Shown here piece after piece: positions 18,136 to 64,000 of a stretch of DNA of 64,000 bases; position 1 is the stretch's first letter; every line of letters begins with the position of its first letter. Below the pieces are notes generated by a model that did not search any database, was not told the origin of the DNA, and saw only the letters and a program-made list of their open reading frames with translations. The stretch lies in assembly GCA_051362555.1 (NCBI GenBank), contig CM120641.1, forward strand, positions 28,836,401 to 28,900,400, given 5' to 3'. The position numbers were made by a program, and so were the translations under genes. Origin of the DNA: Lingula anatina (lineage: Eukaryota; Animalia; Brachiopoda).

Positions 18136-21100
18136 CTTATTTGCAATATTAAACAAAATTTACCTGCATAATTATCACTGCTTCCTTATTATTAATCTAG
18201 CAGAGAGCTTTACCTTTGGGAGTTTACAGGGAAATATCAACAAGTGTGCTTTACGTAATCTTATTTAATGGCCTATTAAGGCAAATGACTTTATAACTCT
18301 GAAATTAATCTAGTGATACCCAAGGGTAATTTACAGAATGACCCACTCAAAGGTCTTCAGGCCCATAAGTCACACCTTAAGAAAAGCACAAAACCATAAT
18401 GCCCAAAATAGGAGACTACCAATCCTGATGCAATAATACATTATGTTTAACTGCACAGTCAACATCAACTTATGCACAACAGGTAACACAGACGAAAGTA
18501 AAAGCATAAGGCTTCAGGCCCATCAGAGTTCAAGTTTATACTTAGAAAGTGCCAGAATGAGAAAAATGAAAATTTCACAAAAAATGCATAAATACAGTAA
18601 AAATGATAATCCAATAGAGCTGGTTTTCTCATATGAGCTGAAGGCCAATCCTAAAAATCGTACTTGTAAGTTTAAAATTATAATAAGTAGCACAGTTTTC
18701 TTTTCATAATGTTTGCAGTAGCAGTGCAAAAAGATTGTTGTCAATTTTGATGTAACATTACATAATAAATTAGAGAATAATTATCACCAATTTTTGTTTA
18801 TTGACTATAAATAGGATGGACATGTAGAAAATATGATTACCATTTGGCTTCATGTCCATGGGAGCTCCGAGTCCCACAATGAATATGCCAAAAAGATAAT
18901 GAATATTACACTAAAATGTATAACTTCCAGAAAAAGAAGCCAATTAGACTGCTTTTCTAACTCAGGCTGCATTTTAGTCCTGTGTTTCTTTTTTGAAAGT
19001 TTGACAGTCATAAGTAACACGGTTTTCCCATAATGGTCATCAAGGCAGCAGCACCAAAAATTGTGTTTTCTTCTATTTTGATGCAACATAACATAATGCT
19101 TAACAGCATAATGACCATCGACTTTTAATAATAAAATATCAGTGTCATGGATTTTCAGAAAATGTGACTAGCATGGGTCTTCAAGCCCGTGGAGGTTCTA
19201 AGTCACACCTTGGAAATGCCAATATGTAAAAAATTAAATTTTCACAAAAAACTGCTTAATTGCCAGAAAAATTTACCAAACAGACTGCATTGCCTACTGA
19301 AGCTGTATTTTAGACCCATGTTTCTTTCCTGTAAGTTTGAGAACAGTAATTGACATGATTTTCCTTAAATGGTCAGCATGGGAGCAGTGCCCAAAATAGG
19401 GGTTTCTTCAAATTTTGATGCAACATTACATAATGTTTAACAGCATAATGACCATCAATTTTTAATTATAAAATATTAGTATCACGGACATTCAGGAAAT
19501 GTGACAAGCAAAGGTCTTCAGGATCATGGAACTTCAAAGTCACACCTTGAAAATGCCAATATGTGAAAAATTAAATTTTCACAAAAAACTGTTTAACTAC
19601 CAGAACAATTTACCAAACAGACTTCATTGCCTACTGAAGCTGTATTTTAGTCCCATGTTTCTTTCCTGTAAGTTTGAGAACAGTAAGTGACATGATTTTC
19701 CTTAAATGGTCAGCATGGGAGCAGTGCCCAAAATAGGGGTTTCTTCAAATTTTGATGCAATATTACATAATGTTTTACAGCATAATGACCATCATTCTTA
19801 ATTATAAAATATTATTATCATGGTTATTCAGAAAATGTGACTAGCAAAAGTCTTCAGGCCCATGGAACTTCAAAGTCACATATTGAAAATGCCAAAATGT
19901 AAACAAGACAGCACGGTTCTGAAATGGGTTTATTTCCATTTTTAACACTTTTTTAACATAAAACAAAATAAACAGTTTACTGCCATTTTTATATGACCAA
20001 TGAAGAAAATTGATGAGATGGGAAAAGTATTAATAGAACAGTGTTAAATGTCCAACTTCCTCCATTCTGAGATTCTGAACATAGTGGATGAATGGATCTG
20101 ACAAACTGCAATGATATGAGTTTATTTCCATTTTTGACACTTGATTACACAATACATGATAACAAGTTTACCATCATTTTTACAAAATCAACTAACAATG
20201 TTGTAAAGATGCAGGAAATGCCAAACAAACACATTTACGTATCTTATTAGTTCAATAATGAGACTGTTAACATGCCTAAGAATTGAATGTGAGGAAATGT
20301 GAAAAAACAGCATAACTTCTAAAATAAAGGCACGATTATGCTGATTTTCAAACTCAACCTGCGTTTTAGTAAGATTGGCTGTGAGTATAATGACAATTGG
20401 CCAATCTGTTTTTCTTATATTGTGTTATCAGTGTTGCATATATACTGAAAAAAGTGAAAAAACAGCATAAATTCCCTATAAGTGACCCGATCGTGCTGAT
20501 TTTCGAACTTGGCCTGGGTATAATGAATATTTATCAGTTCTGTAAGTTTCAAGCCAAAGGGTAAAACAGCTCTTCATTTATTGTGTTATCAGTGTTGCAA
20601 AAATGCTGAAAAAAAGTGAAAAAATAGCCTAAATTCACTAAAAATGACCCAATCATGCTGATTTTCGAACTTGACCTGCGTATTATGAATATTTATCAGT
20701 TTTGTAAGTTTCAAGCCAAAAAGTAAAATGGTTTTCCACTTATCGTGTTATCGGTGCTGCATATATGCTGAAAAAAGTGAAAAAACAGCATAACTTCCCT
20801 AAAAATGGCCCGATCATGCTGATTTTCGAACTTGACCTGCGGATTATGAATATTCATCAGTTTTGTAAGTTTCAAGCCAAAAAGTAAAATGGTTTTCCAC
20901 TTATCGTGTTATCGGTGCTGCATATATGCTGAAAAAAGTGAAAAAACAGCATAACTTCCCTAAAAATGGACCGATCATGCTGATTTTCGAACTTGACCTG
21001 CATATTATGAATATTCATCAGTTCTGTAAGTTTCAAGCCAAAAGCAAAAACGGTTTTCCACTTATCATGTTATCGGTAAAAGTGCACGACGGCGACGACG

Positions 21101-24100
21101 GCGACGACGGCACCGACGGCGACGACGGCGACGACGACAGACGCAGATGATGGCTATATGTACAGACACATCTGTGTCTGTACATAAAAACAAACAAGTG
21201 ATATATTTTCCACTCTGCCTCCCCCCCCACATACACACATACAATTAATGTCAACGAGTATGATATAAATATGTGCATATGTGTATTGCATCATACACAC
21301 CTCATAAAACATCTGTACTCATTAGCACCAACAAACATACTTATAAATTCAACAAAAACCTTTTATGATGTAAATGTTGGTTATAGTATTTCATATGTCA
21401 AGTTTCATCACATTTGAGGGAAGATTTCGAGTCTCATCATTCATGGCATACAAGCTCATGTTTACTTAATAAAATGTATGTATATAGCCCTGACATTGCA
21501 GTACTGGGTTAATATATATCAATGATGTATATCAAGCTGATGTATTATGCATGAAGATGTGCCAGTAGATTTATTCTGAAGTATGTCTTTAGAATTAAAA
21601 TTGTCTGTTATCTAGAAGCTAATTAACTTAAATAGAAAAGAAAAATAACAATTAATCTAAGTACTTGAGCAAAGAACATATCTGCATGTGTTACAAAAAC
21701 TGAGGTGGCAATACATGTAGCCATTAACATTAACTGGTCTGAATGAATTTTTTTCTTTTGATATTTTTCACTCATTATAAACCAATCTTAAAATGGGAAG
21801 AGTGAAAACTTTCAAAATGAAATAAAAGATAAAATACAAACTTAATACCAACACTTACTGAAGCAAAGATGACACTTTCACGTTAAAATCTGAACCATAA
21901 TGAAATGTCAGGGAGATAGTATGAGAAGAACATTCAGTCAATAAAAACATTACCTGTATTTTATCTGACTGCATAAAGCGTCTCCTGTGTATTTTCCCCA
22001 GGGGTGTCCTGAAGGAGAGGAAGACAGTGTCAGGAGTCCCTGGGGAGGGTTCCTCTGGGAGAGTGATTATCTGGAGAAAAATTTTAAAGATTAACCACTT
22101 TGTCTACGTAAGTAATATATGTATGTGTCTGGAAATACCTATAAATTAACACAGCTCTTAATAGACTCTAATTAGGCTTTTGGGTTATAATCACTAAGGT
22201 CCATGTCAAAAGAAATATATATATAGATTTTATTCTGATGAAAATGCATAGAGGCAGTATGCGTGCCAAGTTTGTAACTGCAGGGGTGCCAGAGATGCAT
22301 TATGGTAAAGTTTTACCTTCCTTTGCTTTGGCTTTTCTTGCATAACTGATTGATTGTGGTGTTCAGGCAATTTCCTGGCTTTTGCTGCATCTTTCCCAGT
22401 TTTGCCATTGGCCTTGTGTTTGCTTGCACCATTACCTTCTTCTCCATTCTATTTATACATTTAAATAAAATTAAATAGTTGAACATTTCTAAAATTAAAT
22501 AGTTGAGAATTTTCATTTTTCATGAAAAATTCTTATCTTCAACAGTCTCAAGACAAAGTATAAACAATGCACGTGTGTGGAAAGAGTTGGTGTAAGAATA
22601 TGTGTACAAGGATTTTCATTAAAATAGATTTTTTGTGACTATTTATTATCCATAAAATAATCATGTAATCTCATACATAATTTCATAATTTCTAAACTGA
22701 CCCAATTCTATATAAAATATCAAACTATTTGTTCTCTTCTGCTAGGGCCCCTAGTTACACGTTATTTCTATCCACCCATCCACAGGAACATTGAACACTG
22801 CCATGCTCAAAGACATCACTGTTAAAACAGGTGGTGACGGAAAATTACAGCCACTCTGGACCAGAATAAAATTCGAGGGCATTTTCTCTATTATCTAATA
22901 AGATAAGACACCTGCACTGGAAAGTCTATACATATCTTGTAAGTGTGTCAAATGTGATGTCAATATTGGGTCAATAAGAGCATAGAAGTCAGCTGACAAT
23001 TTCTAGCTGTCTAAGAAATTTCTGCAAATTTAAACCGTTTGAATATGAGCTTTGTCAATATATTTAGTCATGTGGTTAGGGATTTTAATATGACCAAGCA
23101 AAGAGAGGCAGAACACTCTTCCCTTAAAGTAAGCAAAATCTATCTGAGAAAATTAAAGATAAATGTTTAGAAGGCCAATTCTTCATCTGTCTCAATCTAA
23201 ATATGGTTATGCATGAATTAGATCAGATTACTTCAATAATATCCTGAGTAAATGACACATCATATTGTGCAGACTTAAACATGTTTAAACAAGTAACTAT
23301 AAGATACCATCATAAGCAATTATTTTATTTATTTTGGGGGACACCTTAATTAGCACCAAGTTGAGGATGAAAAAAAAAAAAGAATAATGGTACAGTTAAT
23401 GTTGATCACTTGAGTATTTAATTGAGAGAATTTGAGATGTACTACTTCTATTGAGGCATTAATTATTAATAATCCTGCCACTGCTCTAACAGAAGCCGGG
23501 TTCCATCTTTTGACAAAAGTGTAAGCCAAATTTTCATGAAAAAAACTTCATGCATTTTTGAACTTACTCCAAGTGGTGTTCCCTTTCCCTTCCAAGCTGG
23601 ACCTGCAAATCTATAGTATTGTTCCTCTAGCTTTTGACGTTTAGCTTCTTCTTTGGGTTGTAATACATTTTTTCTATACTCAGATGCCTGAAACACAACA
23701 AAACTTATAACATCATTTCTTTCAAAACCATTAAGTTTTCTTTATTACATTATAAGTTAATAAAATGGTTGCATAATCCCTTTTGGACTAAAAAACCTTA
23801 AAAGAGGTTCACCTCCAAAGGCAAAACTTTTTTGGCTCGAAAAGAGATAATACTACCATTATTTTGGGCTTTGCATTTATTTCTTTTATCATATTCTATT
23901 TCTATTACTTAATAATAATAATAATAATAATGATATCTGCTACCAGTACATGATCCTTCTTTTCATAATTAACAACAGAAACAATATGGTACATGGTACA
24001 AACCCACAGGGGAATAATAAACTTCCTTAAACACATTTTCCCTACATTCAAGTAAATTCTGTCACTGTATATACAGTAGACCATCAGGACATAGGTTACC

Positions 24101-41794: not shown

Positions 41795-43789
41795 AAGATC
41801 TGGACTGCAAAGTAATTAGAGTTTGGAAGTTCATTCAGTTGAGACTAGATATTACAAGTGCATCTGATGTATTGTAATCATCTGCTACCGAGTAGCAAAC
41901 AGTGGTGTTCATATCTGAGGTGAAAAGCACATATGAGGTCGCAAATAATTGTTTTTGAAAATGTTGAAATGCTGCTTATGTTGGTGAAAAGGCTTGATCT
42001 TTTGCATTTGTAAATTTCAGGTATTGTATTGGTGTTCATCAATAAACATGTTATAAGAAAATTTGGAGAAAATCCTTTGTCTTTCCTGTGCAGTTGTTTA
42101 TTAGAGATATTGGATACAATTTCAGACAATATTGATGAGCAGGCTATGGGGCTCAGATTACAGTTTTCATACAGCATTCTTTAATGTTTGCTGGAATACA
42201 GTTTTACCAAAAGGGTGCAACACATAACCAAGGAAAATGATAACAACCTAAAACGACAATATAAGCGGAAAACCCAGTCTTATGGTATTGCTCTCTATGC
42301 ACAACACTTGACCCAAAGCTGCATGAAACAAATTGTGGCTTCCGTCTTTTTATGAAAAACTCAAACCTTTTGTTCAAAATAAAGTTCAAGGATAAGCATT
42401 ATCAACGGATTCCTGTAGGGCTTAGCTGTTCTGTTTGGTATGTTGTGGACAGTCATCTTATTATTAACCTTTTAAAGGGACATGCAAAAGAAAAAAACAT
42501 GTTCATCATTCGAGCCCAATAAGTATTATGTTTAAACGCAATTTTTGTGAGGGAATGCAATCATTTTCACCCTCGAACACAATTATCTTTCACTCCATGG
42601 CGATGACAGTCTGGTCTTCATGTTACAATTATCTCGAACGAAAAAGCTTATCACCACAAGTATTTTTATTTTTCAAGAACCCAGGCTCAAATCTGCCTGC
42701 GGTTTCACCATACCCAACTAATTTTCAGAGTATTTTGACATCATCCAGTATTCTCAATTCTCAATCGTCAATAAAATTTATGAATATATTACCATCTCTC
42801 CGTCTTGCTCAGCACCCCATCCCTCTTTTTGTCAGCAGTATAACAAATATTTTAATTTTTTTCAAATATTGCATTTTTGTTTTAACCAAGGGTTTTATTT
42901 ATCTTTCTTTGCATGCATTATCCATCTCACACCTGCCTACTGATGGTGGTGTGTTGCTCCTTCCTTTTTGGATTTTAATATGTAAAATATATGCATGTCA
43001 GGAGTGTTACCTGCCCAATTTTTACAATGAAGCTTGCAAAAATTTGAACATCCTCAAGATACTCTAATGTTACAGGTTGTAAGATGGCCACTGAAAAAAA
43101 ATTCATCACATTTTTTCCTATGGATATGTAAATTTATATTAAAAAATATGCACTTCCATGTTAAATCATTTTGGTGCACACAATAAAAAACATTATTACA
43201 TGTAATGTGTTTCATTATTCCATTACAGATATTAAATAAAAAATTGCAAGGTGCATCTAGTCTTACTTACATAACAGCAATTTGAAGAAAGCAAGTATAA
43301 CAGCCAGGTGTTTCTTTTTTCGTGCCAGTATATATATGTAAAATGGCGAGGTAAACACCGACTACGCAAAAGACGAAAATGGTAAGTATGAGTTGAAGAG
43401 AAAATAATAAGATTTTTAAAATTAAGAATATTAGCAAACTTAATAAAATCACTGTAATTCATAGAAAAAAGGTACATCCCTCGAACAAACAATATTACAC
43501 CTGAAAATGCCCCTAGCAGTGACACATTTGGTGGTGAGCCAGAGGGGCCTCTCAGGAAAAGAACTAAATTTTGAGGCAAAAAGAAATACACTACCACAAG
43601 GGGGCATTAAGGATTATTTGAAGGGGGAGGGAGGGGGGTCCGCGGATGCTTAGCCGACCCTTTGTAGATATTTGCTTCTATCAGCAGCATTTGTAGCAGA
43701 TGTGGTACTGGCACGCTAATGATTTTGCTAAAAGGGGAGGGGGGGGGATAAAAAAAAAGCATCATTCTGTCTTGTTTCAATCATTCTTT

Positions 43790-44974: not shown

Positions 44975-45740
44975 AGACCTATAGCTACATGTAGTGCAGA
45001 TTAACCAATTAAAAATATAAAAATATATACTAAATTAATTATATACATATGAAATGAGAACTATCCCACTTAAGTTAGATAAGATATCAAAGTACGTTCA
45101 AACGCACAAGTGAAAAAATGTCTAATTAATCTCCATAAAACCACATCTAACAAACTTTTTAAATAAACCATAAACAAAATAAAATAGCCTGCATTTGCAA
45201 TTATTTGTGAAAACTATTTACATACTTGTATGTGCACATGTATTAACAATATCTTTTCCAACAAAGAGTTAGATCTATTTCAAACAGAGTTAGATCAATT
45301 TGGTGCATTGGGTTTGTTATAACATGCATTGTGATTCTTTGTAATCATTAGCCATGGTCCAAAATGTTTCAGTTATTCTCTGTATGGATACAAACTGGGT
45401 GCATTACTTGATGCATTTCTTATAATTGGTGTTTTGCATGTTATGAGAAATGCATCTAAAACGTAGACAGTAAAGATGACACCAATCTCACATATTCAGT
45501 TCTGAATAGATATCGAAGTCAAGATTTTTGTGAAGTTCTATATCTTATTACATATGCTGCAATTATTACAGTCATTATTTGACATTATGGAATGATTTAG
45601 TGGGTAAACATGAAAACATACCATTAGGTGTATGGAAATTCTTGAATTATCAATGGAAGATGAAGACTTAAAGTTGCTGCCTTATTCATTACCTTGTTGC
45701 AAAGACTTTAGTAGCCTACAAGTTCAAATTAAATCTTTGT

Positions 45741-48700
45741 CTTAAAAAGAAATAAGGAACGAGATTAGATTTTTCAATTAACCTATCTCCCTCCCCCAAC
45801 AAAAATATAAAATTTACTTACCTTAAATTGTTGATCTGACAAGTATAGTCAATGTCAGAAGGGAGGTGTTCACCATCTTCTATGTTCTGCAAAAATAAAT
45901 AAAAACAAGATTAGATTATTTTCAATTTGCCTATCCCCCCTGAAAAAACTACTAACCTGAAGTTCTTGATCCAAAGAGTAGTACATTAATGTCTGCATGG
46001 ATGGGTTCATCATCTTCTATGTCCTGCAAAAAGAAATAAGGTACGAGATTAGATTTTTTCTATTAACCTATCTCCCTTCCCCCAATAAATGTATAAAATT
46101 TACTAACCTTAAAATATTGATCCAAAGAATACAACGTCAATGTCTGTATGGAGGGATTCATCATCTTCTATGTCCTTTAAAAAGAAATAAGGAATGAGAT
46201 TAGATTTTTTCAATTAACCTATCTTCCTCCCCCAACTAAATTATAAAATTTACTAACCTTAAATTGTTGATCCAAAGAGTAGTACATCAATGTCTGCATG
46301 GGGGAGTTCATCATCTTCTTTGTCCTGTAAAAGGAAATAAGGCACGAGATTAGATCTTTTCAATTTACCCATCCAACCACCACCCCAAAAGAATGAAATT
46401 TACTAACCTTAGCTTGGATCCAAGAGTGAAGTCCACATCCGTGTTGGGTCGCTCATAATCTTCTTTGGCGTGTAAAAAGAAATGAAAAACGAGATTAGAT
46501 TTTTTCAATTTACCCATTCCACCCCCCACCCCCCACCCCCCAAATAAAAAAAATACTAACCTTAGCTTGGATCCAAGAGTGTAGTCCATGTCTGAGTGGG
46601 GTCGCTCATTATCTTCTTTGGATTGTAAAAAGAAATAAAAAACAAGATTAGATTTTTTCAATTTACCCATCCCACCACCCCCCCCAAAAAAATAAATAAA
46701 ATTTACTAACCTTAGCTTGGATCCAAGAGAGAAGTCCATGTCCGGGTGGGTTCGCTCATCATCTTCTTTGCCCTCTAAAAAGAAATGAAAAACATTAAAA
46801 GATTTTTTTCAATTTACTTGTCCCAACACTTCAAAAAAGTTAAATTTACTAACCTTACCTTGGATCCACGAGAGTAGTCCATGTCCGGGTGGGGTCACTC
46901 ATTATCTTCTTTGTCCTGTAAAAAGAAATGAAAAACAAAATTAGATTTTTTCAATTTACTCATCCCACTTCTTCAATAAAAGAAAATTTACTAACCTTAG
47001 CTTGAATCCAAGAGTGAAGTCCATGTCCGGGTGGGGTCGCCCACAATCTTCTTAGTCCTGTAAAAAGAAATGAAAAACAAGATTAGATTTTTTCAATTTA
47101 GCCATCCCACCACTTCAAAAAAATAAAATTTACTAACCTTAGCGTGGATCCAAGAGTGAAGTCCATGTCTGGGTGGGGTCGCTCATCATCTTCTTTGTCC
47201 TGTAAAAAGAAATGAAAAACAAGATTAGATATTTTCAATTTATCCATCCCACTTCTTCAAAAAAATAAAATTTACTAACCTCAGCTTGGATCCAAGAGTG
47301 AAGTCCATGTCCGGGTGGGGTCGCTCATCATCTTCTTTGTCCTGTAAAAAGAAATGAAAAACAAGATTAGATTTTTTCAATTTAGCCATCCCAGCACATC
47401 AAAAAAATTTTAATTTACTAACCTTAGCATGGATCCAAGAGTGAAGTCCATGTCTGGGTGGGGTTGCTCATCATCTTCTTTGTCCTGTAAAAAGAAATGA
47501 AAAACAAGATTAGATTTTTTCAATTTAGCCATCCCACCAAATCAAAAAAATTAAATTTACTAACCTTAGCGTGGATCCAAGAGTGAAGTCCATGTCCGGG
47601 TGGGGCCGCACATCATCTTCTTTTTCCTGTAAAAAGAAATTAAAAAACAAGATTAGATTTTTTCAATTTACCCATTCCACCCCCCACCCCCCACCCCCCA
47701 AATAAAAAAAATACTAACCTTAGCTTGGATCCAAGAGTGAAGTCCACATCCGTGTGGGGTCGCTCATAATCTTCTTTGGCGTGTAAAAAGAAATGAAAAA
47801 CGAGATTAGATTTTTTCAATTTACCCATTCCACCCCCCACCCCCCACCCCCCAAATAAAAAAATACTAACCTTAGCTTGGATCCAAGAGTGTAGTCCATG
47901 TCTGAGTGGGGTCGCTCATAATCTTCTTTGGATTGTAAAAAGAAATAAAAAACAAGATTAGATTTTTTCAATTTACCCATCCCACCACCCCCCCAAAAAA
48001 AATAAATAAAATTTACTAACCTTAGCTTGGATCCAAGAGAGAAGTCCATGTCCGGGTGGGTTCGCTCATCATCTTCTTTGCCCTCTAAAAAGAAATGAAA
48101 AACATTAAAAGATTTTTTTCAATTTACTTGTCCCAACACTTCAAAAAAGTTAAATTTACTAACCTTACCTTGGATCCACGAGAGTAGTCCATGTCCGGGT
48201 GGGGTCACTCATTATCTTCTTTGTCCTGTAAAAAGAAATGAAAAACAAAATTAGATTTTTTCAATTTACTCATCCCACTTCTTCAATAAAAGAAAATTTA
48301 CTAACCTTAGCTTGAATCCAAGAGTGAAGTCCATGTCCGGGTGGGGTCGCCCACAATCTTCTTAGTCCTGTAAAAAGAAATGAAAAACAAGATTAGATTT
48401 TTTCAATTTAGCCATCCCACCACTTCAAAAAAATAAAATTTACTAACCTTAGCGTGGATCCAAGAGTGAAGTCCATGTCTGGGTGGGGTCGCTCATCATC
48501 TTCTTTGTCCTGTAAAAAGAAATGAAAAACAAGATTAGATATTTTCAATTTATCCATCCCACTTCTTCAAAAAAAATAAAATTTACTAACCTCAGCTTGG
48601 ATCCAAGAGTGAAGTCCATGTCCGGGTGGGGTCGCTCATCATCTTCTTTGTCCTGTAAAAAGAAATGAAAAACAAGATTAGATTTTTTCAATTTAGCCAT

Positions 48701-51700
48701 CCCAGCACATCAAAAAAATTTTAATTTACTAACCTTAGCATGGATCCAAGAGTGAAGTCCATGTCTGGGTGGGGTTGCTCATCATCTTCTTTGTCCTGTA
48801 AAAAGAAATGAAAAACAAGATTAGATTTTTTCAATTTAGCCATCCCACCAAATCAAAAAAATTAAATTTACTAACCTTAGCGTGGATCCAAGAGTGAAGT
48901 CCATGTCCGGGTGGGGCCGCACATCATCTTCTTTTTCCTGTAAAAAGAAATTAAAAAACAAGATTAGATTTCTTTCAATTTAACCATCCCACTTCTTCAA
49001 TAAAATAAAATTTACTAACCTTAGCTTGAATCCAAGAGTGAAGTCCATGTCTGGGTGGGGTCGCTCATCATCTTCTTCGTCCTTTAAAAAGAAATGAAAA
49101 ACAAGATTAGATTTTTTTCAATTTAGCCATCCCACCACTTCAAAAAAAATAAAATTTACTAACCTTAGCATGGATCCAAGAGTGAAGTCCATGTCCGGGT
49201 GGGGTCGCTCAATAGCTTCTTTGTCCTGTAAAAAGAAATGGAAAACAAGATTAGATTTTTTCAATTTAGCCATTCCACCACTTCAAAAAAATAAAATTTA
49301 CTAACCTTAACTTGGATCGAAGAGTGAAGTCGATGTTCGGGTGGGGTCGCTCATCATCTTCTTTGACCTGTAAAAAGAAATGAAAAACAAGATCAGATAT
49401 TTTCAATTTACCCATTCCACTTCTTCAAAAAAAATAAAATTTACTAACCTTAGCGTGGATCCAAGAGTGAAGTCCATGTCCGGGTGGGGCCGCTCATCAT
49501 CTTCTTTGTCCTGTAAAAAGGAAATAAAAAAACAAGATTAGATTTCTTTCAATTTACCCATCCCACTTCTTCAATAAAATAAAATTTACTAACCTTAGCT
49601 TGAATCCAAGAGTGAAGTCCATGTCCAGGTGGGGTCGCCCATAATCTTCTTTGTCCTGTAAAAAGAAATGAAAAACAAGATAAGATTTTTTCAATTTAGC
49701 CATTCCACCACTTCAAAATAATAAAATTTACTAACCTTAGCGTGGATCCAAGAGTGAAGTCCATGTCTGGGTGGGGTCGCTCATCATCTTCTTCGTCCTT
49801 TAAAAAGAAATGAAAAACAAGATTAGATTTTTTTCAATTTAGCCATCCCACCACTTCAAAAAAAATAAAATTTACTAACCTTAGCATGGATCCAAGAGTG
49901 AAGTCCATGTCCGGGTGGGGTCGCTCAATAGCTTCTTTGTCCTGTAAAAAGAAATGGAAAACAAGATTAGATTTTTTCAATTTAGCCATCGCACCACTTC
50001 AAAAAAATAAAATTTACCAACCTTAGCGTGGATCCAAGAGTGAAGTCCATGTCCGGGTGGGGCCGCTCATCATCTTCTTTGTCCTATAAAAAGAAATGAA
50101 AAACAAAATTAGATATTTTCAATTTACATATCCCACTTCTTCAAAAAAATTAAATTTACTAACCTTAGTTTGGATCCAAGAGTGAAGTCCATGTCTGGGT
50201 GGAGTCGCTCATCTTCTTACTCCTGTAAAAAGAAATGAAAAACAAAATTAGATATTTTCAATTTACCTATCCCACTTCTCCAAAAAAATTAAATTTACTA
50301 ACCTTAGTTTGGATCCAAGAGTGAAGTCCATGTCTGGGTGGAGTCGCTCATCTTCTTTGTCCTGTAAAAAGAAATGAAAAACAATATTAGATGTTTTCAA
50401 TTTACCCATCCCACTTATTCAATAAAATAAAATTTACTAACCTTAGCTTGGATCCAAGAGTGAAGTCCATGTCCGTGTGGGGTTGCTCATCTTCTTCTTT
50501 GTCATGTAAAAATGAATGAAAAACAAGATTAGATATTTTCAATTTATCCATCCCACTTCTTCAATAAAATATAATTTACTAACCTTAGCTTGAATCCAAG
50601 AGTGAAGTCCATGTCCGTGTGGGGTCACCCATAATCTTCTTTGTCCTGTAAAAAATAATGAAAAACAAGATTAGATTTTTTCAATTTAGCCATTCCACCA
50701 CTTCAAAAAAATAAAATTAACTAACCTTAGCGTGGATCCAAGAGTGAAGTCCATGTCTGGGTGGGGTCGCTCATCATCTTCTTTGTCCCGTAAAAAGAAA
50801 TGTAAAACAAGATGAGATTTTTTTAATTTACCAATCCCACTTCTTCAAAAAAAGTAAAATTTTTTCAATTTAGCCATCCCACCACTTCAAAAAAATAAAA
50901 TTTACTAACCTGAGAGTGGATCCAAGAGTGATGTCCATGTCTGGGTGGGGTTGCTCATCATCTTCTTTGTCCTGTAAAAATGAATAAAAAAAAAGATGAG
51001 ACATTTTCAATTTATCCATCATACTTCTTCAAAAAAAATAAAATTTACTAACCTTAGCTTGGATCCAAGAGTGAAGTCCATGTCCGTGTGGGATCCCTCA
51101 TCATCTTCTTTGTCCTGTAAAAAGAAATGAAAAACAAGATTAGATTTTTTTCAATTTAGCCATCCCACCACTTCAAAAAAATCAAAATTTACTAACCTTA
51201 GCTTGGATCCAATAGTGAAGTCCATGTCTGGGAGGAGTCGCTCATCTTCTTTGTCCTGTAAAAATAAATGAAAAACAATATTAGATTCTTTCAATTTACT
51301 CGTCCCACCAATTGAAAAAAATAAAATTTACTAACCTTAGCGTGGATCCAAGAGTGAAGTCCATGTCCGGATGGGGTCGCTCATCATCTTCTTTGTCCTG
51401 TAAAAAGAAATGAAAAACAAGATTACATTTTTTCAATTTAGCCATCAAACCACTTCAAATAAATAAAATTTACTAACCTTAGCGTGGATCCAAGAGTGAA
51501 GTCCATGTCCAGGTGGGGTCACTCATCATCTTCTTTGTCCTGTAAAAAGAAATGAAAAACAAGATTAGATATTTTCAATTTACCTATCCCACTTCTGCAA
51601 AAAAAATTAAATTTACTAACCTTAGCATGGATCCAAGAGTGAAGTCCATGTCTGGGGGGGGGGGTCACTCATCATCTTCTTTGTCCTGAAAAAATAAATG

Positions 51701-54700
51701 AAAAACAAGATTAGATTCTTTCAATTTACTCGTCTCACCACTTCAAAAAAATAAAATTTACTAACCTTAGTTTGAATCCAAGAGTGAAGTCAATGTCCGG
51801 GTGGAGTCGCTCATCATCTTCTTTGTCCTGTAAAAAGAAATGAAAAACAATATTAGATTTTTTCAATTTACCCATCCCACTTCTCGAATAAAATAAAATT
51901 TACTAACCTTAGCTTGGATCCAAGAGTGAAGTCCATGTCCGTGTGGGGTTGCTCATCATCTTCTATGTCCTGTAAAAAGAAATGAAAAAAAAGATTACAT
52001 TTTTTCAATTTAGCCATCAAACCACTTCAAAAAAATAAAATTTACTAACCTTAGTATGGATCCAAGAGTGAAGTCCATGTCTGGGGGGGGGGGGGGGGGT
52101 CGCTCATCATCATCTTTGTCCTGAAAAAAGAAATGAAAAACAATATTAGATTCTTTCAATTTACTCGTCCCACCAATTGAAAAAAATAAAATTTACTAAC
52201 CTTAGCGGGGATCCTAGAGTGAAGTCCATGTCCGAATGGGGTCGCTCATCATCTTCTTTGTCCTGTAAAAAGAAATGAAAAACAAGATTAGATTTTTTCA
52301 ATTTAGCCATCCTACCACTTCAAAAAAATAAAATTTACTAACCTTAGTATGGATCCAAGAGTGAAGTCCATGTTTGGGGGGGGGGGGGTCGCTCATCATC
52401 ATCTTTGTCCTGAAAAAAGAAATGAAAAACAAGATTAGATTTTTTCAATTTAGCCATCAAACCACTTCAAATAAATAAAATTTACTAACCTTAGCGTGGA
52501 TCCAAGAGTGAAGTCCATGTCCAGGTGGGGTCGATCATCATCTTCTTTGTCCTGTAAAAAGAAATGAAAAACAAGATTAGATTTTTTCAATTTAGCCATC
52601 CTACCACTTCAAAAAAATAAAATTTACTAACCTTAGTATGGATCCAAGAGTGAAGTCCATGTCTGGGGGGGGGTCGCTCATCATCTTCTTTGTCCTGAAA
52701 AAATAAATGAAAAACAAGATTAGATTCTTTCAATTTACTCGTCTCACCACTTCAAAAAAATAAAATTTACTAACCTTAGTTTGAATCCAAGAGTGAAGTC
52801 AATGTCCGGGTGGAGTCACTCATCATCTTTTTTGTCCTGTAAAAAGAAATGAAAAACAAGATTAGATTTTTTCAATTAACCCATCCCACTTCTCCAATAA
52901 AATAAAATTTACTAACCTTAGCTTGGATCCAAGAGTGAAGTCCATGTCCGTGTGGGGTTGCTCATCATCTTCTATGTCCTGTAAAAAGAAATGAAAAAAA
53001 AGATTACATTTTTTCAATTTAGCCATCAAACCACTTCAAATAAATGAATTTTACTAACCTTAGCGTGGATCCAAGAGTGAAGTCCATGTCCAGGTGGGGT
53101 CACTCATCATCTTCTTTGTCCTGTAAAAAGAAATGAAAAACAATATTAGATTTTTTCAATTTACCCATCCCACTTCTCCAATAAAATAAAATTTACTAAC
53201 CTTAGCTTGGATCCAAGAGTGAAGTCCATGTCCGTGTGGGGTTGCTCATCATCTTCTTTGTCCTGTAAAAATGAATGAAAAACAAGATTAGATATTTTCA
53301 ATTTATCCATCCCACTTCTTCAAAAAAATAAAATTTACTAACCTTAGCATGGATCCAAGAGTGAAGTCCATGTCTGGGGGGGGGGGGGGGGGGTCGATCA
53401 TCATCTTCTTTGTCCTGAAAAAAGAAATTAAAAACAAGATTAGATTCTTTCAATTTACTTGTCCCATTACTGCAAATAAATAAAATTTACTAACCTTAGC
53501 GTGGATCCAAGAGTGAAGTCCATGTCCAGGTGAGGTCGCTCATCATCTTCTTTGTCCTGTAAAAAGAAATGAAAAACAAGATTAAATATTTTCAATTTAC
53601 CTATCCCACTTCTGTAAAAAAATAAAATTTACTAACCTTAGCGTGGATCCAAGAGTGAAGTCCATGTCTGGGGGGGGGGGGGGGTCGATCATCATCTTTT
53701 TTGTCCTGAAAAAAGAAATTAAAAACAAGATTAGATTTTTTCAATTTTCTTGTCCCACCACTACAAAAAAATAAAATTTACTAACCTTAGTTTGAATCCA
53801 AGAGTGAAGTCCATGTCCGGGTGGAGTCGCTCATCATCTTCTTTGTCCTGTAAAAAGAAATGAAAAACAATATTAGATTTTTTCAATTTACCCATCCCAC
53901 TTCGCCAATAAAATAAAATTTACTAACCTTAGCTTGGATCCAAGAGTGAAGTCCATGTCCGTGTGGGGTTGCTCATCATCTTCTTTGTCCTATAAAAATG
54001 AATGAAAAACAAGATTAGATATTTTCAATTTATCCATCCCACTTCTTCAAAAAAATAAAATTTACTAACCTTAGCATGGATCCAAGAGTGAAGTCCATGT
54101 CTGGGGGGGGGGGGGGGGGGGGGGGGGGTTGATCATCATCTTCTTTGTCCTGAAAAAAGAAATGAAAAACAAGATTACATTTTTTCAATTTAGCCATCAA
54201 ACCACTTCAAATAAATAAAATTTACTAACCTTAGCGTGGATCCAAGATTGAAGTCCATGTCCAGGTGGGGTCGCTCATCATCTTCTTTGTCCTGTAAAAA
54301 GAAATGAAAAACAAGATTAGATATTTTCAATTTACCTATCCCACTTCTGCAAAAAAAATTAAATTTACTAACCTTAGCGTGGATCCAAGAGTGAAGTCCA
54401 TGTCTGGGGGGGGGGTCACTCATCATCTTCTTTGTCCTGAAAAAATAAATGAAAAACAAGATTAGATTCTTTCAATTTACTCGTCTCACCACTTCAAAAA
54501 AATAAAATTTACTAACCTTAGTTTGAATCCAAGAGTGAAGTCAATGTCCGGGTGGAGTCGCTCATCATCTTCTTTGTCCTGTAAAAGGAAATGAAAAACA
54601 ATATTAGATTTTTTCAATTTACCCATCCCACTTCTCGAATAAAATAAAATTTACTAACCTTAGCTTGGATCCAAGAGTGAAGTCCATGTCCGTGTGGGGT

Positions 54701-57700
54701 TGCTCATCATCTTCTATGTCCTGTAAAAAGAAATGAAAAAAAAGATTACATTTTTTCAATTTAGCCATCAAACCACTTCAAATAAATGAAATTTACTAAC
54801 CTTAGCGTGGATCCAAGAGTGAAGTCCATGTCCAGGTGGGGTCGCTCATCATCTTCTTTGTCCTGTAAAAAGAAATAAAAAACAAGATTAGATATTTTCA
54901 ATTTACCTATCGCACTTCTGTAAAAAAATAAAATTTACTAACCTTAGCGTGGATCCAAGAGTGAAGTCCATGTCCGTGTGGGGTTGCTCATCATCTTCTT
55001 TGTCCTGTAAAAATGAATGAAAAATAAGATTAGATATTTTCAATTTATCCACCCCACTTCTTCAATAAAATAAAATTTACTAACCTTAGCGTGGATCCAA
55101 GAGTGAAGTCCATGTCCAGGTGGGGTCGCTCATCATCTTCTTTGTCCTGTAAAAAAAATGAAAAACAAGATTAGATTTTTTCAATTTAGCCATCCCACCA
55201 CTTCAAAAAAATCAAAGTATACTAACCTTAGCTTGGATCCAATAGTGAAGTCCATGTCTGGGTGGAGTCGCTCATCTTCTTTGTCCTGTAAAAATAATTG
55301 AAAAACAATATTAGATTCTTTCAATTTACTCGTCCCACCAATTCAAAAAAATAAAATTTACTAACCTTAGCTTGGATCCAAGAGTGAAGTCCATGTCCGG
55401 ATGGGGTCGCTCATCATCTTCTTTGTCCTGGAAAAACAAATGAAAAACAAGATTAGATGTTTTCAATTTATCCATCCCACTTCTTCAATAAAATAAAATT
55501 TACTAACCTTAGTTTGGATCCAAGAGTGATGTCCATGTCTGGGTGGAGTCGCTCATCTTCTTTGTCCTGTAAAAAGAAATGAAAAACAAGATTAGATTTT
55601 TTCAATTTAGCCATCCCACCACTTCAAAAAAGTAAAATTTACTAACCTGAGAGTGGATCCAAGAGTGAAGTCCATGTCCGGGTGGGGTTGCTCATCATCT
55701 TCTTTGTCCTGTAAAAATGAATAAAAAAAAAGATGAGACATTTTCAATTTATCCATCATACATCTTCAAAAAAAATAAAATTTACTAACCTTAGCTTGGA
55801 TCCAAGAGTGAAGTCCAAGTCCGTGTGGGGTCAATCATCATCTTCTTTGTCCTGTAAAAAGAAATGAAAAACAAGATTAGATTTTTTTCAATTTAGCCAT
55901 CCCACCACTTCAAAAAAATCAAAATTTACTAACCTTAGCTTGGATCCAATAGTGAAGTCCATGTCTGGGTGGAGTCGCTCATCTTCTTTGTCCTGTAAAA
56001 ATAAATGAAAAACAATATTAGATTCTTTCAATTTACTCGTCCCACCAATTGAAAAAAATAAAATTTACTAACCTTAGCGTGGATCCAAGAGTGAAGTCCA
56101 TGTCCGGATGGGGTCACTCATCATCTTCTTTGTCCTGTAAAAAGAAATGAAAAACAAGATTAGATATTTTCAATTTACCTATCCCACTTCTGCAAAAAAA
56201 ATTAAATTTACTAACCTTAGCGTGGATCCAAGAGTGATGTCGATGTCTGGGTGGAGTCGCTCATCTTCTTTGTCCTGTAAAAAGAAATGAAAAACAAGAT
56301 TAGATTTTTTCAATTTAGCCATCCCACCACTTCAAAAAAATAAAATTTACTAACCTGAGAGTGGATCCAAGAGTGATGTCCATGTCCGGGTGGGGTTGCT
56401 CATCATCTTCTTTGTCCTGTAAAAATGAATAAAAAAAAAGATGAGACATTTTCAATTTATCCATCCCACTTCTTCAAAAAAAATAAAATTTACTAACCTT
56501 AGCTTGGATCCAAGAGTGAAGTCCATGTCCGTGTGGGGTCGATCATCATCTTCTTTGTCCTGTAAAAAGAAATGAAAAACAAGATTAGATTTTTTTCAAT
56601 TTAGCCATCTCACCACTTCAAAAATAAAATTTACTAACCTTAGCATGGATCCAAGAGTGAAGTCCATGTCTGGGGGGGGGTCGCTCATCATCTTCTTTGT
56701 ACTGTAAAAAAAAATGAAAAACAAGATTAGATTTTTTTCAATTTAGCCATCCCACCACTTCAAAAAAATCAAAATTTACTAACCTTAGCTTGGATCCAAT
56801 AGTGAAGTCCATGTCTGGGTGGAGTCGCTCATCTTCTTTGTCCTGTAAAAATAAATGAAAAACAAGATTAGATTCTTTCAATTTACTCGTCTCACCACTT
56901 CGAAAAAATAAAATTTACTAACCTTAGCTTGGATCCAAGAGTGAAGTCCATGTCCAGGTGGGGTTGCTCATCATCTTCTTTGTCCTGTAAAAAGAAATGA
57001 AAAACAAGATTAGATATTTTCAATTTACTTATCCCACTTCTGCAAAAAAAATTAAATTTACTAACCTTAGCGTGGATCCAAGAGTGAAGTCCATGTCTGA
57101 GGGGGGGGGGTCGCTCATCATCTTCTTTGTCCTGAAAAAATAAATGAAAAACAAGATTAGATTCTTTCAATTTACTCGTCTCACCACTTCATGTCCGGGT
57201 GGAGTCGCTCATCATCTTCTTTGTCCTGTAAAAAGAAATGAAAAACAATATTAGATTTTTTCAATTTACCCATCCCACTTCGCCAATAAAATAAAATTTA
57301 CTAACCTTAGCTTGGATCCAAGAGTGAAGTCCATGTCCGTGTGGGGTTGCTCATCATCTTCTTTGTCCTGTAAAAATGAATGAAAAACAAGATTAGATAT
57401 TTTCAATTTATCCATCCCACTTCTTCAAAAAAATAAAATTTACTAACCTTAGCATGGATCCAAGAGTGAAGTCCATGTCTGGGGGGGGGGGGGTCGATCA
57501 TCATCTTCTTCGTCCTGAAAAAAGAAATTAAAAACAAGATTAGATTTTTTCAATTTACTTGTCCCACCACTGCAAAAAAATAAAATTTACTAACCTTAGT
57601 TTGAATCCAAGAGTGAAGTCCATGTCCGTGTGGGGTTTTTCATCATCTTCTTTGTCCTGTAAAAAGAAATGAAAAACAAGATTACATTTTTTCAATTTAG

Positions 57701-60700
57701 CCATCAAACCACTTCAAATAAATAAAATTTACTAACCTTAGCGTGGATCCAAGAGTGAAGTCCATGTCCAGGTGGGGTCGCTCATCATCTTCTTTGTCCT
57801 GTAAAAAGAAATGAAAAACAAGATTAGATATTTTCAATTTACCTATCCCACTTCTGCAAAAAAAATTAAATTTACTAACCTTAGCGTGGATCCAAGAGTG
57901 AAGTCCATGTCTGGGGGGGGGGGGGGGGGTCGCTCATCTTCTTCTTTGTCCTGAAAAAATAAATGAAAAACAAGATTAGATTCTTTCAATTTACTTGTCC
58001 CACCACTGCAAAAAAAAATAAAATTTACTAACCTTAGTTTGAATCCAAGAGTGAAGTCCATGTCCGGGTGGAGTCACTCATCATCTTCTTTGTCCTGTAA
58101 AAAGAAATGAAAAACAATATTAGATTTTTTCAATTTACACATCCCACTTCTCCAATAAAATAAAATTTACTAACCTTAGCTTGGATCCAAGAGTGAAGTC
58201 CATGTCCGTGTGGGGTTGCTCATCATCTTCTTTGTCCTGTAAAAAGAAATGAAAAACAAGATTACATTTTTTTAATTTAGCCATCAAACCACTTCAAATA
58301 AATGAAATTTACTAACCTTAGCATGGATCCAAGAGTGAAGTCCATGTCCAGGTGGGGTCGCTCATCATCTTCTTTGTCCTGTAAAAAGAAATGAAAAACA
58401 AGATTAGATTCTTTCAATTTACTCGTCCCACCACTTCAAAAAAATAAAATTTACTAACCTTAAAGTGGATCCAAGAGTGAAGTCCATGTCCGGGTGGGGT
58501 CGATCATCATCTTCTATGTCCTGTAAAAAGAAATGAAAAACAAGATTAGATTTTTTTCAATTAACCCATCCCACTTCTTCAATAAAATTAAATTCACTAA
58601 CCTTAGCGTGGATCCAAGAGTGAAGTCTATGTCCGTGTGGGGTCGCTCATCATCTTCTTTGTCCTGTAAAAAGAAATGAAAAACAAAATTAGATTTTTTC
58701 AATTTACTCGTCCCACCACTTCAAAAAAATAAAATTTACTAACCTAAGCATGAATCCAAGAATGAAGTCATTGTCCGGTTGGGGTCGCTCAATATCTTCT
58801 TTGTCCTGTAAAAAGAAATGAAAAACAAAATTAGATATTTTCAATTTACCTATCCCACTTCTTCAAAATAATTAAATTTACTAACCTTAGTTTGGATCCA
58901 AGAGTGAAGTCCATGTCTGGGTGGAGTCGCTCATCTTCTTTGTCCTGTAAAAATAAATGAAAAACAATATTAGATTCTTTCAATTTACTCGTCCCACCAA
59001 TTCAAAAAAATAAAATTTACTAACCTTAGCTTGGATCCAAGAGTGAAGTCCATGTCCGTGTGGGGTTGCTCATCATCTTCTTTGTCCTGTAAAAAGAAAT
59101 GAAAAACAAGATTACATTTTTTTAATTTACTCGTCCCAACAATTGAAAAAAATAAAATTTACTAACCTTAGCTTGGATCCAAGAGTGAAGTCCATGTCCG
59201 GATGGGGTCGCTCATCATCTTCTTTGTCCTGTAAAAAGAAATGAAAAACAAGATTAGATTTTTTCAATTTAGCCATCCCACCAATTCAAAAAAATCAAAA
59301 TTTACTAACCTTAGCTTGGATCCAATAGTGAAGTCCATGTCTGGGTGGAGTAGCTCATCTTCTTTGTCCTGTAAAAATAAATGAAAAACAATATTAGATT
59401 CTTTCAATTTACTCGTCCCACCAATTGAAAAAAATAAAATTTACTAACCTTAGCTTGGATCCAAGAGTGAAGTCCATGTCCGGATGGGGTCGCTCATCAT
59501 CTTCTTTGTCCTGTAAAAAGAAATGAAAAACAAGATTAGATTTTTTCAATTTAGCCATCCTACCACTTCAAAAAAATAAAATTTACTAACCTTAGTATGG
59601 ATCCAAGAGTGAAGTCCATGTCTGGGGGGGGGGGGGGGGGGTCGCTCATCATGTTCTTTGTCCTGAAAAAAGAAATGAAAAACAAGATTAGATTTTTTCA
59701 ATTTAGCCATCAAACCACTTCAAATAAATAAAATTTACTAACCTTAGCGTGGATCCAAGAGTGAAGTCCATGTCCAGGTGGGGTCGCTCATCATCTTCTT
59801 TGTCCTGTAAAAAGAAATGAAAAACAAGATTAGATATTTTCAATTTACTTATCCCACTTCTGCAAAAAAAATTAAATTTACTAACCTTAGCGTGGATCCA
59901 AGAGTGAAGTCCATGTCTGGGGGGGGGGGTCGCTCATCATCTTCTTTGTCCTGAAAAAATAAATGAAAAACAAGATTAGATTCTTTCAATTTACTCGTCT
60001 CACCACTTCAAAAAAATAAAATTTACTAACCTTAGTTTGAATCCAAGAGTGAAGTCAATGTCCGGGTGGAGTCGCTCATCATCTTCTTTGTCCTGTAAAA
60101 AGAAATGAAAAACAAGATTAGATATTTTCAATTTACCCATCCCACTTCTCCAATAAAATAAAATTTACTAACCTTAGCTTGGATCCAAGAGTGAAGTCCA
60201 TGTCCGTGTGGGGTTGCTCATCATCTTCTATGTCCTGTAAAAAGAAATGAAAAAAAAGATTACATTTTTTCAATTTAGCCATCAAACCACTTCAAATAAA
60301 TGAAATTTACTAACCTTAGCGTGGATCAAAGAGTGAAGTCCATGTCCAGGTGGGGTCGCTCATCATCTTCTTTGTCCTGTAAAAAGAAATGAAAAACAAG
60401 ATTAGATATTTTCAATTTACCTATCCCACTTCTGTAAAAAAATAAAATTTACTAACCTTAGCGTGGATCCAAGAGTGAAGTCCATGTCTGGGGGGGGGGG
60501 TCGATCATCATCTTCTTTGTCCTGAAAAAAGAAATTAAAAACAAGATTAGATTTTTTCAATTTTCTTGTCCCACCACTGCAAAAAAATAAAATTTACTAA
60601 CCTTAGTTTGAATCCAAGAGTGAAGTCCATGTCCGGGTGGAGTCGCTCATCATCTTCTTTGTCCTGTAAAAAGAAATGAAAAACAATATTAGATTTTTTC

Positions 60701-63187
60701 AATTTACCCAACCCTCTTCTCCAATAAAATAAAATTTACTAACCTTAGCTTGGATCCAAGAGTGAAGTCCATGTCCGTGTGGGGTTGCTCATCATCTTCT
60801 TTGTCCTGTAAAAATGAATGAAAAACAAGATTAGATTCTTTCAATTTATCCATCCCACTTCTTCAAAAAAATAAAATTTACTAACCTTAGCATGGATCCA
60901 AGAGTGAAGTCCATGTCTGGGGGGGGGGGGGGGGTCGATCATCATCTTCTTTGTCCTGAAAAAAGAAATTAAAAACAAGATTAGATTTTTTCAATTTACT
61001 TGTCCCACCACTGCAAAAAAATAAAATTTACTAACCTTAGTTTGAATCCAAGAGTGAAGTCCATGTCCGTGTGGGGTTTCTCATCATCTTCTTTGTCCTG
61101 TAAAAAGAAATGAAAAACAAGATTACATTTTTTCAATTTAGCCATCAAACCACTTCAAATAAATAAAATTTACTAACCTTAGCGTGGATCCAAGAGTGAA
61201 GTCCATGTCCAGGTGGGGTCGCTCATCATCTTCTTTGTCCTGTAAAAAGAAATGAAAAACAAGATTAGATATTTTCAATTTACCTATCCCACTTCTGCAA
61301 AAAAAATTAAATTTACTAACCTTAGCGTGGATCCAAGAGTGAAGTCCATGTCTGGGGGGGGGGGGGGTCGCTCATCATCTTCTTTGTCCTGAAAAAATAA
61401 ATGAAAAACAAGATTAGATTCTTTCAATTTACTTGTCCCACCACTGCAAAAAAATAAAATTTACTAACCTTAGTTTGAATCCAAGAGTGAAGTCCATGTC
61501 CGGGTGGAGTCACTCATCATCTTCTTTGTCCTGTAAAAAGAAATGAAAAACAATATTAGATTTTTTCAATTTACACATCCCACTTCTCCAATAAAATAAA
61601 ATTTACTAACCTTAGCTTGGATCCAAGAGTGAAGTCCATGTCCGTGTGGGGTTGCTCATCATCTTCTTTGTCCTGTAAAAAGAAATGAAAAACAAGATTA
61701 CATTTTTTTAATTTAGCCATCAAACCACTTCAAATAAATGAAATTTACTAACCTTAGCGTGGATCCAAGAGTGAAGTCCATGTCCAGGTGGGGTCGCTCA
61801 TCATCTTCTTTGTCCTGTAAAAAAAATGAAAAACAAGATTAGATTCTTTCAATTTACTCGTCCCACCACTTCAAAAAAATAAAATTTACTAACCTTAAAG
61901 TGGATCCAAGAGTGAAGTCCATGTCCGGGTGGGGTCGATCATCATCTTCTTTGTCCTGTAAAAAGAAATGAAAAACAAGATTAGATTTTTTTCAATTAAC
62001 CCATCCCACTTCTTCAATGAAATTAAATTCACTAACCTTAGCGTGGATCCAAGAGTGAAGTCCATGTCCGTGTGGGGTCGCTCATCATCTTCTTTGTCCT
62101 GTAAAAAGAAATGAAAAACAAGATTTGATTTTTTCAATTTAGCCATCCTACCACTTCAAAAAAATAAAATTTACTAACCTTAGCGTGGATCCAAGAGTGA
62201 AGTCCATGTCGGGGGGGGGGGGGGGTTGCTCATCATCTTCTTTGTCCTGAAAAAAGAAATGAAAAACAAGATTAGATTCTTTCAATTTACTCGTCCCACC
62301 ACTTCAAAAAAATAAAATTTACTAACCTTAGCTTGGATCCAAGAGTGAAGTCCATGTCCGGGTGGGGTCGCTCATCATATTCTTTGTCCTGTTAAAAGAA
62401 ATGAAAAACAAGATTAGATTTTTTTCAATTTAGCCATCCCACCACTTCAAAAAAATAAAATTTGCTAACCTTAGCGTGGATCCAAGAGTGAAGTCCATGT
62501 CTGGGTGGGGTTGCTCATCATCTTCTTTGTCCTGAAAAAAGAAATGAAAAACAAGATTAGATTTTTTCAATTTTCTCGTCCCACCACTTCAAACAAATAA
62601 AATTTACTAACCTTAGCTTAGATCCAAGAGTGAAGTCCATGTCCGGGTGGGGTCGCTCATCATCTTCTTTGTCCTGTAAAAAGAAATGAAAAACAAGATT
62701 AGATTTTTTCAATTTAGCCATCCCACCACTTCAAAAAAATAAAATTTACTAACCTTAGCGTGGATCCAAGAGTGAAGTCCATGTCTGGGTGGGGTCGCCC
62801 ATCATTTTCTTTGTCCTGAGAAAAGAAATGAAAAACAAGATTAGATTTTTTCAATTTACCTATCCCACTTCTTCAAAAAAATAAAATTTACTAACCTTAA
62901 CTTGGATCGAAGAGTGAAGTCCATGTCCGGGTGGGGTCGCTGATCTTCTTTGTCCTGTTAAAAGAAATGAAAAACAAGATTAGATATTTTCAATTTATCC
63001 ATTCCACTTCTTCAAAAAAATAAAATTTACTAACCTTAGAGTGGATCCAAGAGTGAAGTCCATGTCCGGGTGGGGTCGCTCATCATCTTCTTCGTCCTGT
63101 AAAAAGAAATGAAAAACAAGATTAGATATTTTCAATTTACCCATCCCACTTCTTCAAAAAATAAAATTTACTAACCTTAGCTTGGAT
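45741..63187 (-). repeat. ~142-bp tandem array (about 120 units), each unit an exon+intron-like cassette on the minus strand
   Basis: Minus-strand consensus: ...TCTAATCTTGTTTTTCATTTCTTTTTACAG | GACAAAGAAGATGATGAGCGACCCCACCCGGACATGGACTTCACTCTTGGATCCA(A/C)GCTAAG | GTTAGTAAATTTT... The period is 142 bp (e.g. 47158 to 47300) and most units carry a BamHI site. Copy number is estimated from span/period. Confidence 0.95.
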
Positions 63188-63866
63188 TCTAGAGATAAGA
63201 CAGGTTTTTCAACTGAAGCTATGTTTAAGTCCTATACTTCTTTTCTTTGTTTGATTTTTTAAATTTGGAGAAGTGAAAGTGACATGGTTTTCCTTTAATG
63301 GTCACGGTGGAGGCAGTGCCCAAAATATGGATGGCTTCAGTTTTGATGCAATATTAGATAATGCTTAACAGCATAATGACCATCAAGTTTTAATAATCAA
63401 ATAAAAGTATAATGTTTATTCAACAAATTTGACATGGATATGTCTTCAAGGTCATAAAAGTTCAGAGTCACACCTTCAAAATACCAAAATGTAAACAAGA
63501 GATAACTGTATTGAAATGATTTTTTTCCCATTTTTAACACCTTTTTTTACATAAAACAAAATGAGCAATTTACTGGCATTTTTAAATGATCAACTAAGAA
63601 AATTGTTGACATAGGAAATATATCAATAGAACAATTTCAAATGTCCTATTTGCTCCATTCTGAGATTCTGAACATAGTGAATGATTGAATCTGACAAACT
63701 GTAAAGATGTGTTTATTTCCATTTTTGAAACCTTATTTTATCATCATTTTTATTTAATCAACTAACAATATTGTTAAGATTCAGAAAATGTCAAAAGAAC
63801 ACCTTTATATATCTAATTAATTAAAAAATGAGACTGTTACAGACACATGTGTCTGTACATAAAAAC
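63188..63866 (+). mobile_element. Internally deleted copy of the HINE-like element found at 18.3-21.2 kb
   Basis: Shares collinear blocks with ~19620-20270 (GCAGTGCCCAAAATA, GCATAATGACCATC, GTCACACCTT, CTCCATTCTGAGATTCTGAACATAGTG, GAGACTGTTA) and the terminal palindrome TACAGACACATGTGTCTGTACATAAAAAC. Confidence 0.75.
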
Positions 63867-64000
63867 AATACACAAAAGGGAAAAACACTCACTCACACTT
63901 GAGAGAAAATGCACATCAGCCTTAGAAGAGAAACACGACAACCAAACAAGCGTGACCTAAATATGGCATATGAAGGTTTTGGTTCTAGCCTCAAAGGGCA

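Follow-up and report, generated by a model that had tools for sequence, protein, structure and literature searches.

Is a tandem repeat whose units carry a splice donor, a branch motif and an acceptor in the order of an intron an ordinary satellite, or is it a gene whose transcript is spliced unit by unit? This question is raised by an array on the minus strand of the brachiopod Lingula anatina, at positions 45741 to 63190 of a stretch of 64,000 nucleotides (GenBank assembly GCA_051362555.1, contig CM120641.1, positions 28,836,401 to 28,900,400 of the forward strand), which is referred to here as the window. Satellites are usually masked and taken as inert, and the known repeats that carry splice sites are decoys or hosts of small RNAs. 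The array is a real feature, beyond chance. The reading we favour, with moderate confidence, is that an exon-intron cassette has been amplified and that the repeat family is transcribed and spliced, likely as part of a many-exon, minus-strand non-coding RNA gene the splice signals of which are likely under selection.

The array comprises 121 donors and 120 full units of an intron plus an exon, with a mean length of about 143 bp, and Tandem Repeats Finder (TRF) gives a period of 142 bp over 45950-63194. The units were obtained by cutting the minus strand at the donors, and the full ones run from 63175 to 45822. At its 5' edge, at 63190, the array opens with the final ~15 nt of an exon (63176-63190), followed by the first intron (63097-63175, 79 nt), which has a GTTAGT donor, a CTAAT branch motif, a T-rich tract and a CAG acceptor, and by the first full exon (63035-63096, 62 nt). 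The donor hexamer is GTTAGT in 118 of the 120 units; AG|GT still stands at the exon end in 116/116 units of the young subfamily described below when these are anchored on the exon core rather than on the donor, so the invariance of the donor is not an artefact of cutting there. The acceptor AG is present in 114/120 units (CAG in 107) and the CTAAT motif in 99/120. Of the 100 units scored for the branch point, 94 have the branch A 25 nt upstream of the intron end, and in 65 its distance from the donor is 55 nt. Introns are 79-84 nt long in 114/120 units, and exons are exactly 62 nt long in 87/120 and of length 3n+2 in 107/120; frame 0 is open in 98/120 exons, frame 1 in 14/120 and frame 2 in 5/120. 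A first-pass annotation made from the letters alone had described about 120 tandem minus-strand cassettes built on a 142-bp monomer, with CTAAT some 25 nt before the acceptor, a 62-nt exon of length 3n+2 open mainly in frame 0, an AG|GTTAGT donor about 55 nt from the branch point and an intron of about 80 nt, and these counts bear out that description throughout. In a test designed with the array unit already in view, a strict order of donor, branch, tract and acceptor on either strand was found in 4/20,000 dinucleotide shuffles of the unit, and a looser version in 229/20,000. A TACTAAC on the plus strand was considered and rejected, since it represents the donor region in reverse complement, at a spacing that does not suit a plus-strand intron. 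One unit, of 240 bp, is a fusion made by deletion, and exon lengths span 59-80 nt through poly-C expansion. In about one in seven units across 52340-62330 the exon contains a poly-C stretch that reaches ~25 nt, which marks a lineage of units in which exon length shifts through all phases while the splice signals remain intact.

Two age classes of unit can be distinguished. The young subfamily (46408-63190, minus strand) contains 116 units with 62-nt-type exons and a mean pairwise identity of 0.89, and shows block duplications at offsets of 9, 19, 24, 38 and 57 units. The old subfamily (45741-46407, minus strand) consists of four units with 65-67-nt exons at the 3' end of the array (45822-46407), together with a last intron that has a GTAAGT donor and ends at 45741; its exons are 58-75% identical to those of young units. 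Substitutions were counted on a tree of 118 units, from which the irregular units of 240 and 184 bp were excluded. The seven donor positions have undergone one change in total (0.14 per site), versus a mean of 3.11 per site across the unit, and the donor 7-mer is the least-changed window of the unit (in base-matched shuffles, P=0.008 when the best window is taken from any position). The first-pass annotation had proposed a per-column profile of this kind as a check, and its outcome is that the donor positions change far less than the remaining unit. Between two young and four old units, all 15 signal positions are invariant, versus 57/127 other positions (Fisher P=1.7e-5), in a comparison in which the columns are not independent and the two young units were picked by hand. 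The middle of the intron varies as much as the exon. The two CpGs of the consensus have undergone 7-12 changes per base, a rate that would be consistent with gene-body methylation. Judged from this pattern of substitution, the splice signals of the array are likely to have been kept by selection.

Evidence that such units are spliced comes from RNA. The reads of four (X1, X3, X4 and X7) of the nine RNA runs bearing the same species label were aligned to 62990-64000 at 85% likeness, a threshold at which every copy collapses on one exon, the first full one; the joints link its donor end to an exon start. Among the matches listed, at least 24 reads span exon-exon joints that fall on the predicted donor and acceptor, 16 in X1 and eight in X3 (two of the four runs). 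Joints with a period of 62 were found in seven X1 reads with three different starts and in two X3 reads, all nine flagged "between: not known"; in the longest-sided read of each run the sides measure 51 and 62 nt of 151-nt reads, so these best X1 and X3 reads cannot hide an 80-nt intron. The period is also 62 in six X3 reads (four starts) with a variant exon start and in three X1 reads with a variant exon end, while other X1 reads have periods of 63 (four reads, two starts) and 59 (two reads). In the period-63 reads, the joint runs from 63098 to 63057 and includes a variant exon of 63 nt, in frame, for which the window has no counterpart. The DNA of the window contains 0 of the 37 predicted junction 20-mers, so that a further check proposed by the first-pass annotation, for exon-exon junctions missing from this DNA, gave a positive result: such joints appear in RNA. 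If their source were an intronless tandem copy elsewhere, that copy would itself imply past splicing. By mate strand, the depth at the exon centre is 45:0 in X1, 27:8 in X3, 12:2 in X7 and 1:0 in X4. Reads also cover the upstream flank (63874-64000, minus strand) to a depth of 2-5x in X1 and X3, their mate strand being that of the exon reads, and the transcript likely starts beyond the window, upstream of 64000. The low depth at 63160-63193 is left out of the evidence for splicing, as the reference intron has one T less than most copies and reads may be clipped there.

Several observations weigh against this reading, as do the two limits on the comparison of young with old units. The RNA alignment rests on one collapsed unit, and of the nine reads flagged "between: not known", only the best of each run excludes a hidden intron. 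Exon starts or ends absent from the window are borne by 15 of the 24 joint reads listed; further arrays or alleles must therefore exist and contribute reads. No exon-exon joint is listed for X4 or X7, and X4 lists two reads of unit length (141) with another intron variant. In X1, depth at the 3' end of the intron is 27.5, versus 45 over the exon, from which it follows that splicing is partial or that nascent RNA is present. The X3 depth on the opposite strand is 8 versus 27, and the attribution of the exon reads to minus-strand RNA rests on the alignment convention and on splice-site logic, with no control gene. Expression is low: 12 million reads give about 0.4x per unit. Six acceptors have been lost in the array, in about four events, and within the young subfamily the conservation of the acceptor and branch positions does not reach significance (P 0.2-0.3).

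Some of these points would also suit an ordinary satellite with fossil splice sites, silent or simply read through, the spliced reads coming from other loci. Most explicit joints bear variants that do not occur in the window, read depth is low, many reads are unspliced, six units have no acceptor, the block duplications are typical of satellite turnover, and the array adjoins a dispersed repeat. Against this, the signals within the same array are conserved far above the remaining unit, in 16 of the 18 X1 reads that cover the exon end the letters are the commonest ones of window-type units, and the reads over the upstream flank come from the same two runs, X1 and X3. A fossil satellite seems unlikely to us, and splicing of exactly this array (45741-63190) is likely.

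If the array is spliced, does its product encode a protein? A fully spliced array RNA would be 7,629 nt long, and its longest ATG-initiated frame has 75 residues. Frame-0 changes in the exons comprise 57 nonsynonymous and 15 synonymous ones, versus 137:37 possible, and the exons are therefore without coding constraint. A frame-0 profile had no match among 5.8 billion clustered proteins, where the only candidates were weak and long, and no genuine match among 1.84 billion representative proteins, where the one hit, a lungfish B-box protein (P0118), was rejected as an exon homologue because it matched intron read-through instead. A frame-1 profile likewise had no match among proteins. As the queries were short and took in intron read-through, little weight attaches to the blank result. 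A 22-nt motif of the exon had 0 matches in metagenome contigs.

These results bear on the main rival, according to which in-frame 63-nt exons of a relative, located elsewhere in the genome, encode an acidic repeat of 21 residues, and the array is a decayed copy of a coding repeat gene, frameshifted, amplified and still spliced. This rival is kept alive by the in-frame 63-nt joint: the four X1 reads (two starts) show a phase-0 junction, with an end resembling the old subfamily, and the repeat may have a coding relative elsewhere. Frame 0 is moreover open in 98/120 exons, and the purine-rich exon translates as a D/E-rich peptide. However, the protein searches were blank for both the frame-0 and the frame-1 profile, synonymous changes are not in excess, the old units, with 65-67-nt exons, are likewise out of frame, and ancestry alone would leave the invariance of the donor among young copies unexplained. 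We consider such a derivation rather improbable, if still worth weighing. A second coding explanation, put forward by the first-pass annotation as an option, is a Dscam-like cluster of mutually exclusive coding exons. The short distance of 55 nt between donor and branch point would suit it, as would the one frame that is mostly open, but the RNA shows repeat exons joined to each other, exon lengths fall in all three phases and so break the frame, no coding constraint is seen, and the next candidate exon downstream, a non-repeat one of 48 nt past the last acceptor (45693-45740, minus strand, followed by GTAATG), is stopped in 3/3 frames. The Dscam-like option is thus largely refuted and has a negligible probability in our view.

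The introns could instead carry the product, the array being a host gene for an intron-encoded small RNA (a mirtron or a small nucleolar RNA, snoRNA) in the manner of C19MC or SNORD116. Repeated non-coding exons form the same architecture (PMC2691840), and the intron is about the size of a microRNA precursor (pre-miRNA). The signs of a cargo are nevertheless missing: no microRNA or snoRNA was found in the introns by Rfam and folding. An Rfam scan of the 64-kb window returned no family at the gathering score; a scan of 58000-64000 gave only a CRISPR-repeat match (E=0.36), outside the array, which was dismissed as due to chance. In comparisons with shuffles, folding showed no excess for the intron, the exon or the unit (z 0.3-0.6), with z=0.60 for the young intron, and one old intron folds weakly better than its shuffles (z=-1.56). 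The intron shows no C/D boxes, and its middle varies like the exon. A C-box-like ATGATGA is found in the exon rather than in the intron. A small-RNA host is accordingly very unlikely.

The best reading is thus likely to be a serially and partly spliced non-coding RNA gene that has grown by tandem amplification of one whole cassette. Two further options of the first-pass annotation are combined here: a many-exon non-coding RNA, supported for the repeat family by the RNA joints and by donor conservation, and the amplification of one exon-intron unit, which is also supported and is compatible with the former. RNA polymerase II would enter from upstream of 64000 and traverse the 17-kb array, in which (45741-63190) AATAAA occurs 0 times on the minus strand and 114 times on the plus strand, so that the polymerase would meet no AATAAA on the transcribed strand. 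U1 would bind one donor per ~142 nt, and each intron of ~80 nt would be defined and excised separately, yielding a repeat RNA of ~7.6 kb at most, rich in stops, that may be nuclear or short-lived. As each unit comprises an entire cassette, a change in copy number is neutral for splicing; unequal crossing-over or block duplication could change the number of exons and leave splicing unharmed, and a gene could in this way reach the size of a satellite. In the young subfamily, the hold on the donor is tighter than that on the acceptor, which suggests that selection acts on U1 occupancy or on the act of splicing rather than on exon sequence. A bolder proposal, which we put forward only tentatively, is that the array belongs to a multi-locus family of "splicing-only" non-coding RNA genes, with minimal intron-exon cassettes in arrays of satellite size and neither protein nor cargo, selected as a dense U1/spliceosome scaffold or nuclear body. 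With splice sites spaced 142 nt apart, the nascent RNA would then act as such a scaffold or body.

A satellite with a working intron-exon unit, conserved signals and drifting exons is a natural test of whether selection keeps splicing rather than RNA sequence, and this single locus offers 120 introns that are close to replicates, units in which the acceptor has been knocked out naturally, and units of two ages. It also indicates that repeat masking can conceal genes of more than 100 exons in invertebrate genomes.

The window contains several other features. An EF-hand gene lies at 5601-12145; one of its exons matches Lingula anatina EFCAB6 at 96%, and the EFCAB6 protein maps back onto the window over 13 stretches with 87.5-100% identity, in agreement with an origin from Lingula or a very near relative. 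Genuine EFCAB6 exon ends include donors of the AG|GTTAG type and GTAAGT, as in the array. A SAM (S-adenosylmethionine) synthetase gene on the plus strand converges on the 3' side of the array, and any read-through from it would face the 114 plus-strand AATAAA. The 5' end of the array adjoins a copy of a dispersed repeat (63212-63868) with a 20-bp palindrome at its end; another copy is located at ~18400-21193. This repeat is a composite of 337-bp units with two inverted-repeat pairs, 161-bp units, an ACG-type microsatellite and a terminal palindrome, and the copy beside the array is without the 161-bp part. Its relatives are abundant and strongly one-stranded in polyadenylated RNA (e.g. 330:7 in X1), and the ends of the RNA reads match the copy at 18400-21193. 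That composite repeat is just downstream of the exons of a small minus-strand gene at ~21950-23690, and is likely intronic. We take this gene to resemble UBXN8; a Pfam scan of two of its exons gave no match. Broken open frames on both strands at 41850-43070, which also had no match in a Pfam scan, are possibly the remains of a pseudogene or transposon.

How does this array compare with known systems? A literature search, the coverage of which left out most subscription journals, found no description of the Lingula repeat. C19MC-HG in humans is an RNA polymerase II non-coding RNA of spliced tandem exons (123 nt, 37 copies) with no open reading frame; its reverse transcription PCR (RT-PCR) products form a ladder of exon length, and its complementary DNA (cDNA) variants are hard to assign to the assembly (PMC2691840). 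The Lingula repeat family similarly consists of tandem non-coding exons that are spliced together, as is likely for this array. C19MC units, however, are 400-700 nt long, with introns that contain pre-miRNAs and Alus (PMC2691840), whereas the Lingula array has ~120 units of 142 bp and an intron of ~80 nt that is nearly pure splice signal, with no cargo found. The IPW exon/SNORD116 array of the Prader-Willi locus also consists of non-coding exons that share one host transcript (PMC4742849); its introns host C/D snoRNAs, none of which was detected in the Lingula intron. The Lingula array thus shows no sign of the intronic small RNA that defines C19MC-HG and IPW, having no hairpin excess and no Rfam match. 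Human intragenic tandem arrays have larger units, and none of those described in the accessible part of that report is equivalent to the Lingula unit (PMC2588610).

In the oyster, the Helentron-associated Cg_HINE elements carry satellite arrays (PMC7492417). The other copy of the dispersed repeat that flanks the Lingula array resembles them: it contains tandem arrays and a microsatellite and terminates in a palindrome. The palindrome is present on one side of the array, with no matching 9-mer within 950 bp on the other and no paired subterminal inverted repeat found, so that a position of the array inside a HINE-type element is at most a possibility. Chicken LL2R is a satellite-like repeat (446 bp x 360, ~86% identity) with a one-strand transcript that is rich in donors, poor in polyadenylation signals and recruits spliceosomal factors; it has a more than threefold excess of donors, and its splicing is proposed to fail (bioRxiv 10.64898/2026.03.19.712899). 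The Lingula array is likewise one-stranded (45:0 in X1 and 27:8 in X3, with no control gene for strand) and free of AATAAA on the minus strand, but its donors and acceptors are in a ratio of about 1:1 (121 to 114 plus the terminal one), joints are seen and splicing is partial. An LL2R-like array in turkey is said to have balanced sites (bioRxiv 10.64898/2026.03.19.712899), and may be a closer precedent.

The amphioxus "mirage" minisatellites are tandem repeats of 150-160 bp with splice signals, the edge units of which have diverged through concerted evolution; what they copy is just one boundary between exon and intron in a coding gene, the normal splicing of which is reportedly undisturbed (PMC3087553). 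The Lingula unit, unlike a mirage, has both boundaries and a whole exon, no host protein was found for it, and its units are spliced together. It is this constitution as a whole cassette that sets the Lingula array apart from decoy splice-site minisatellites.

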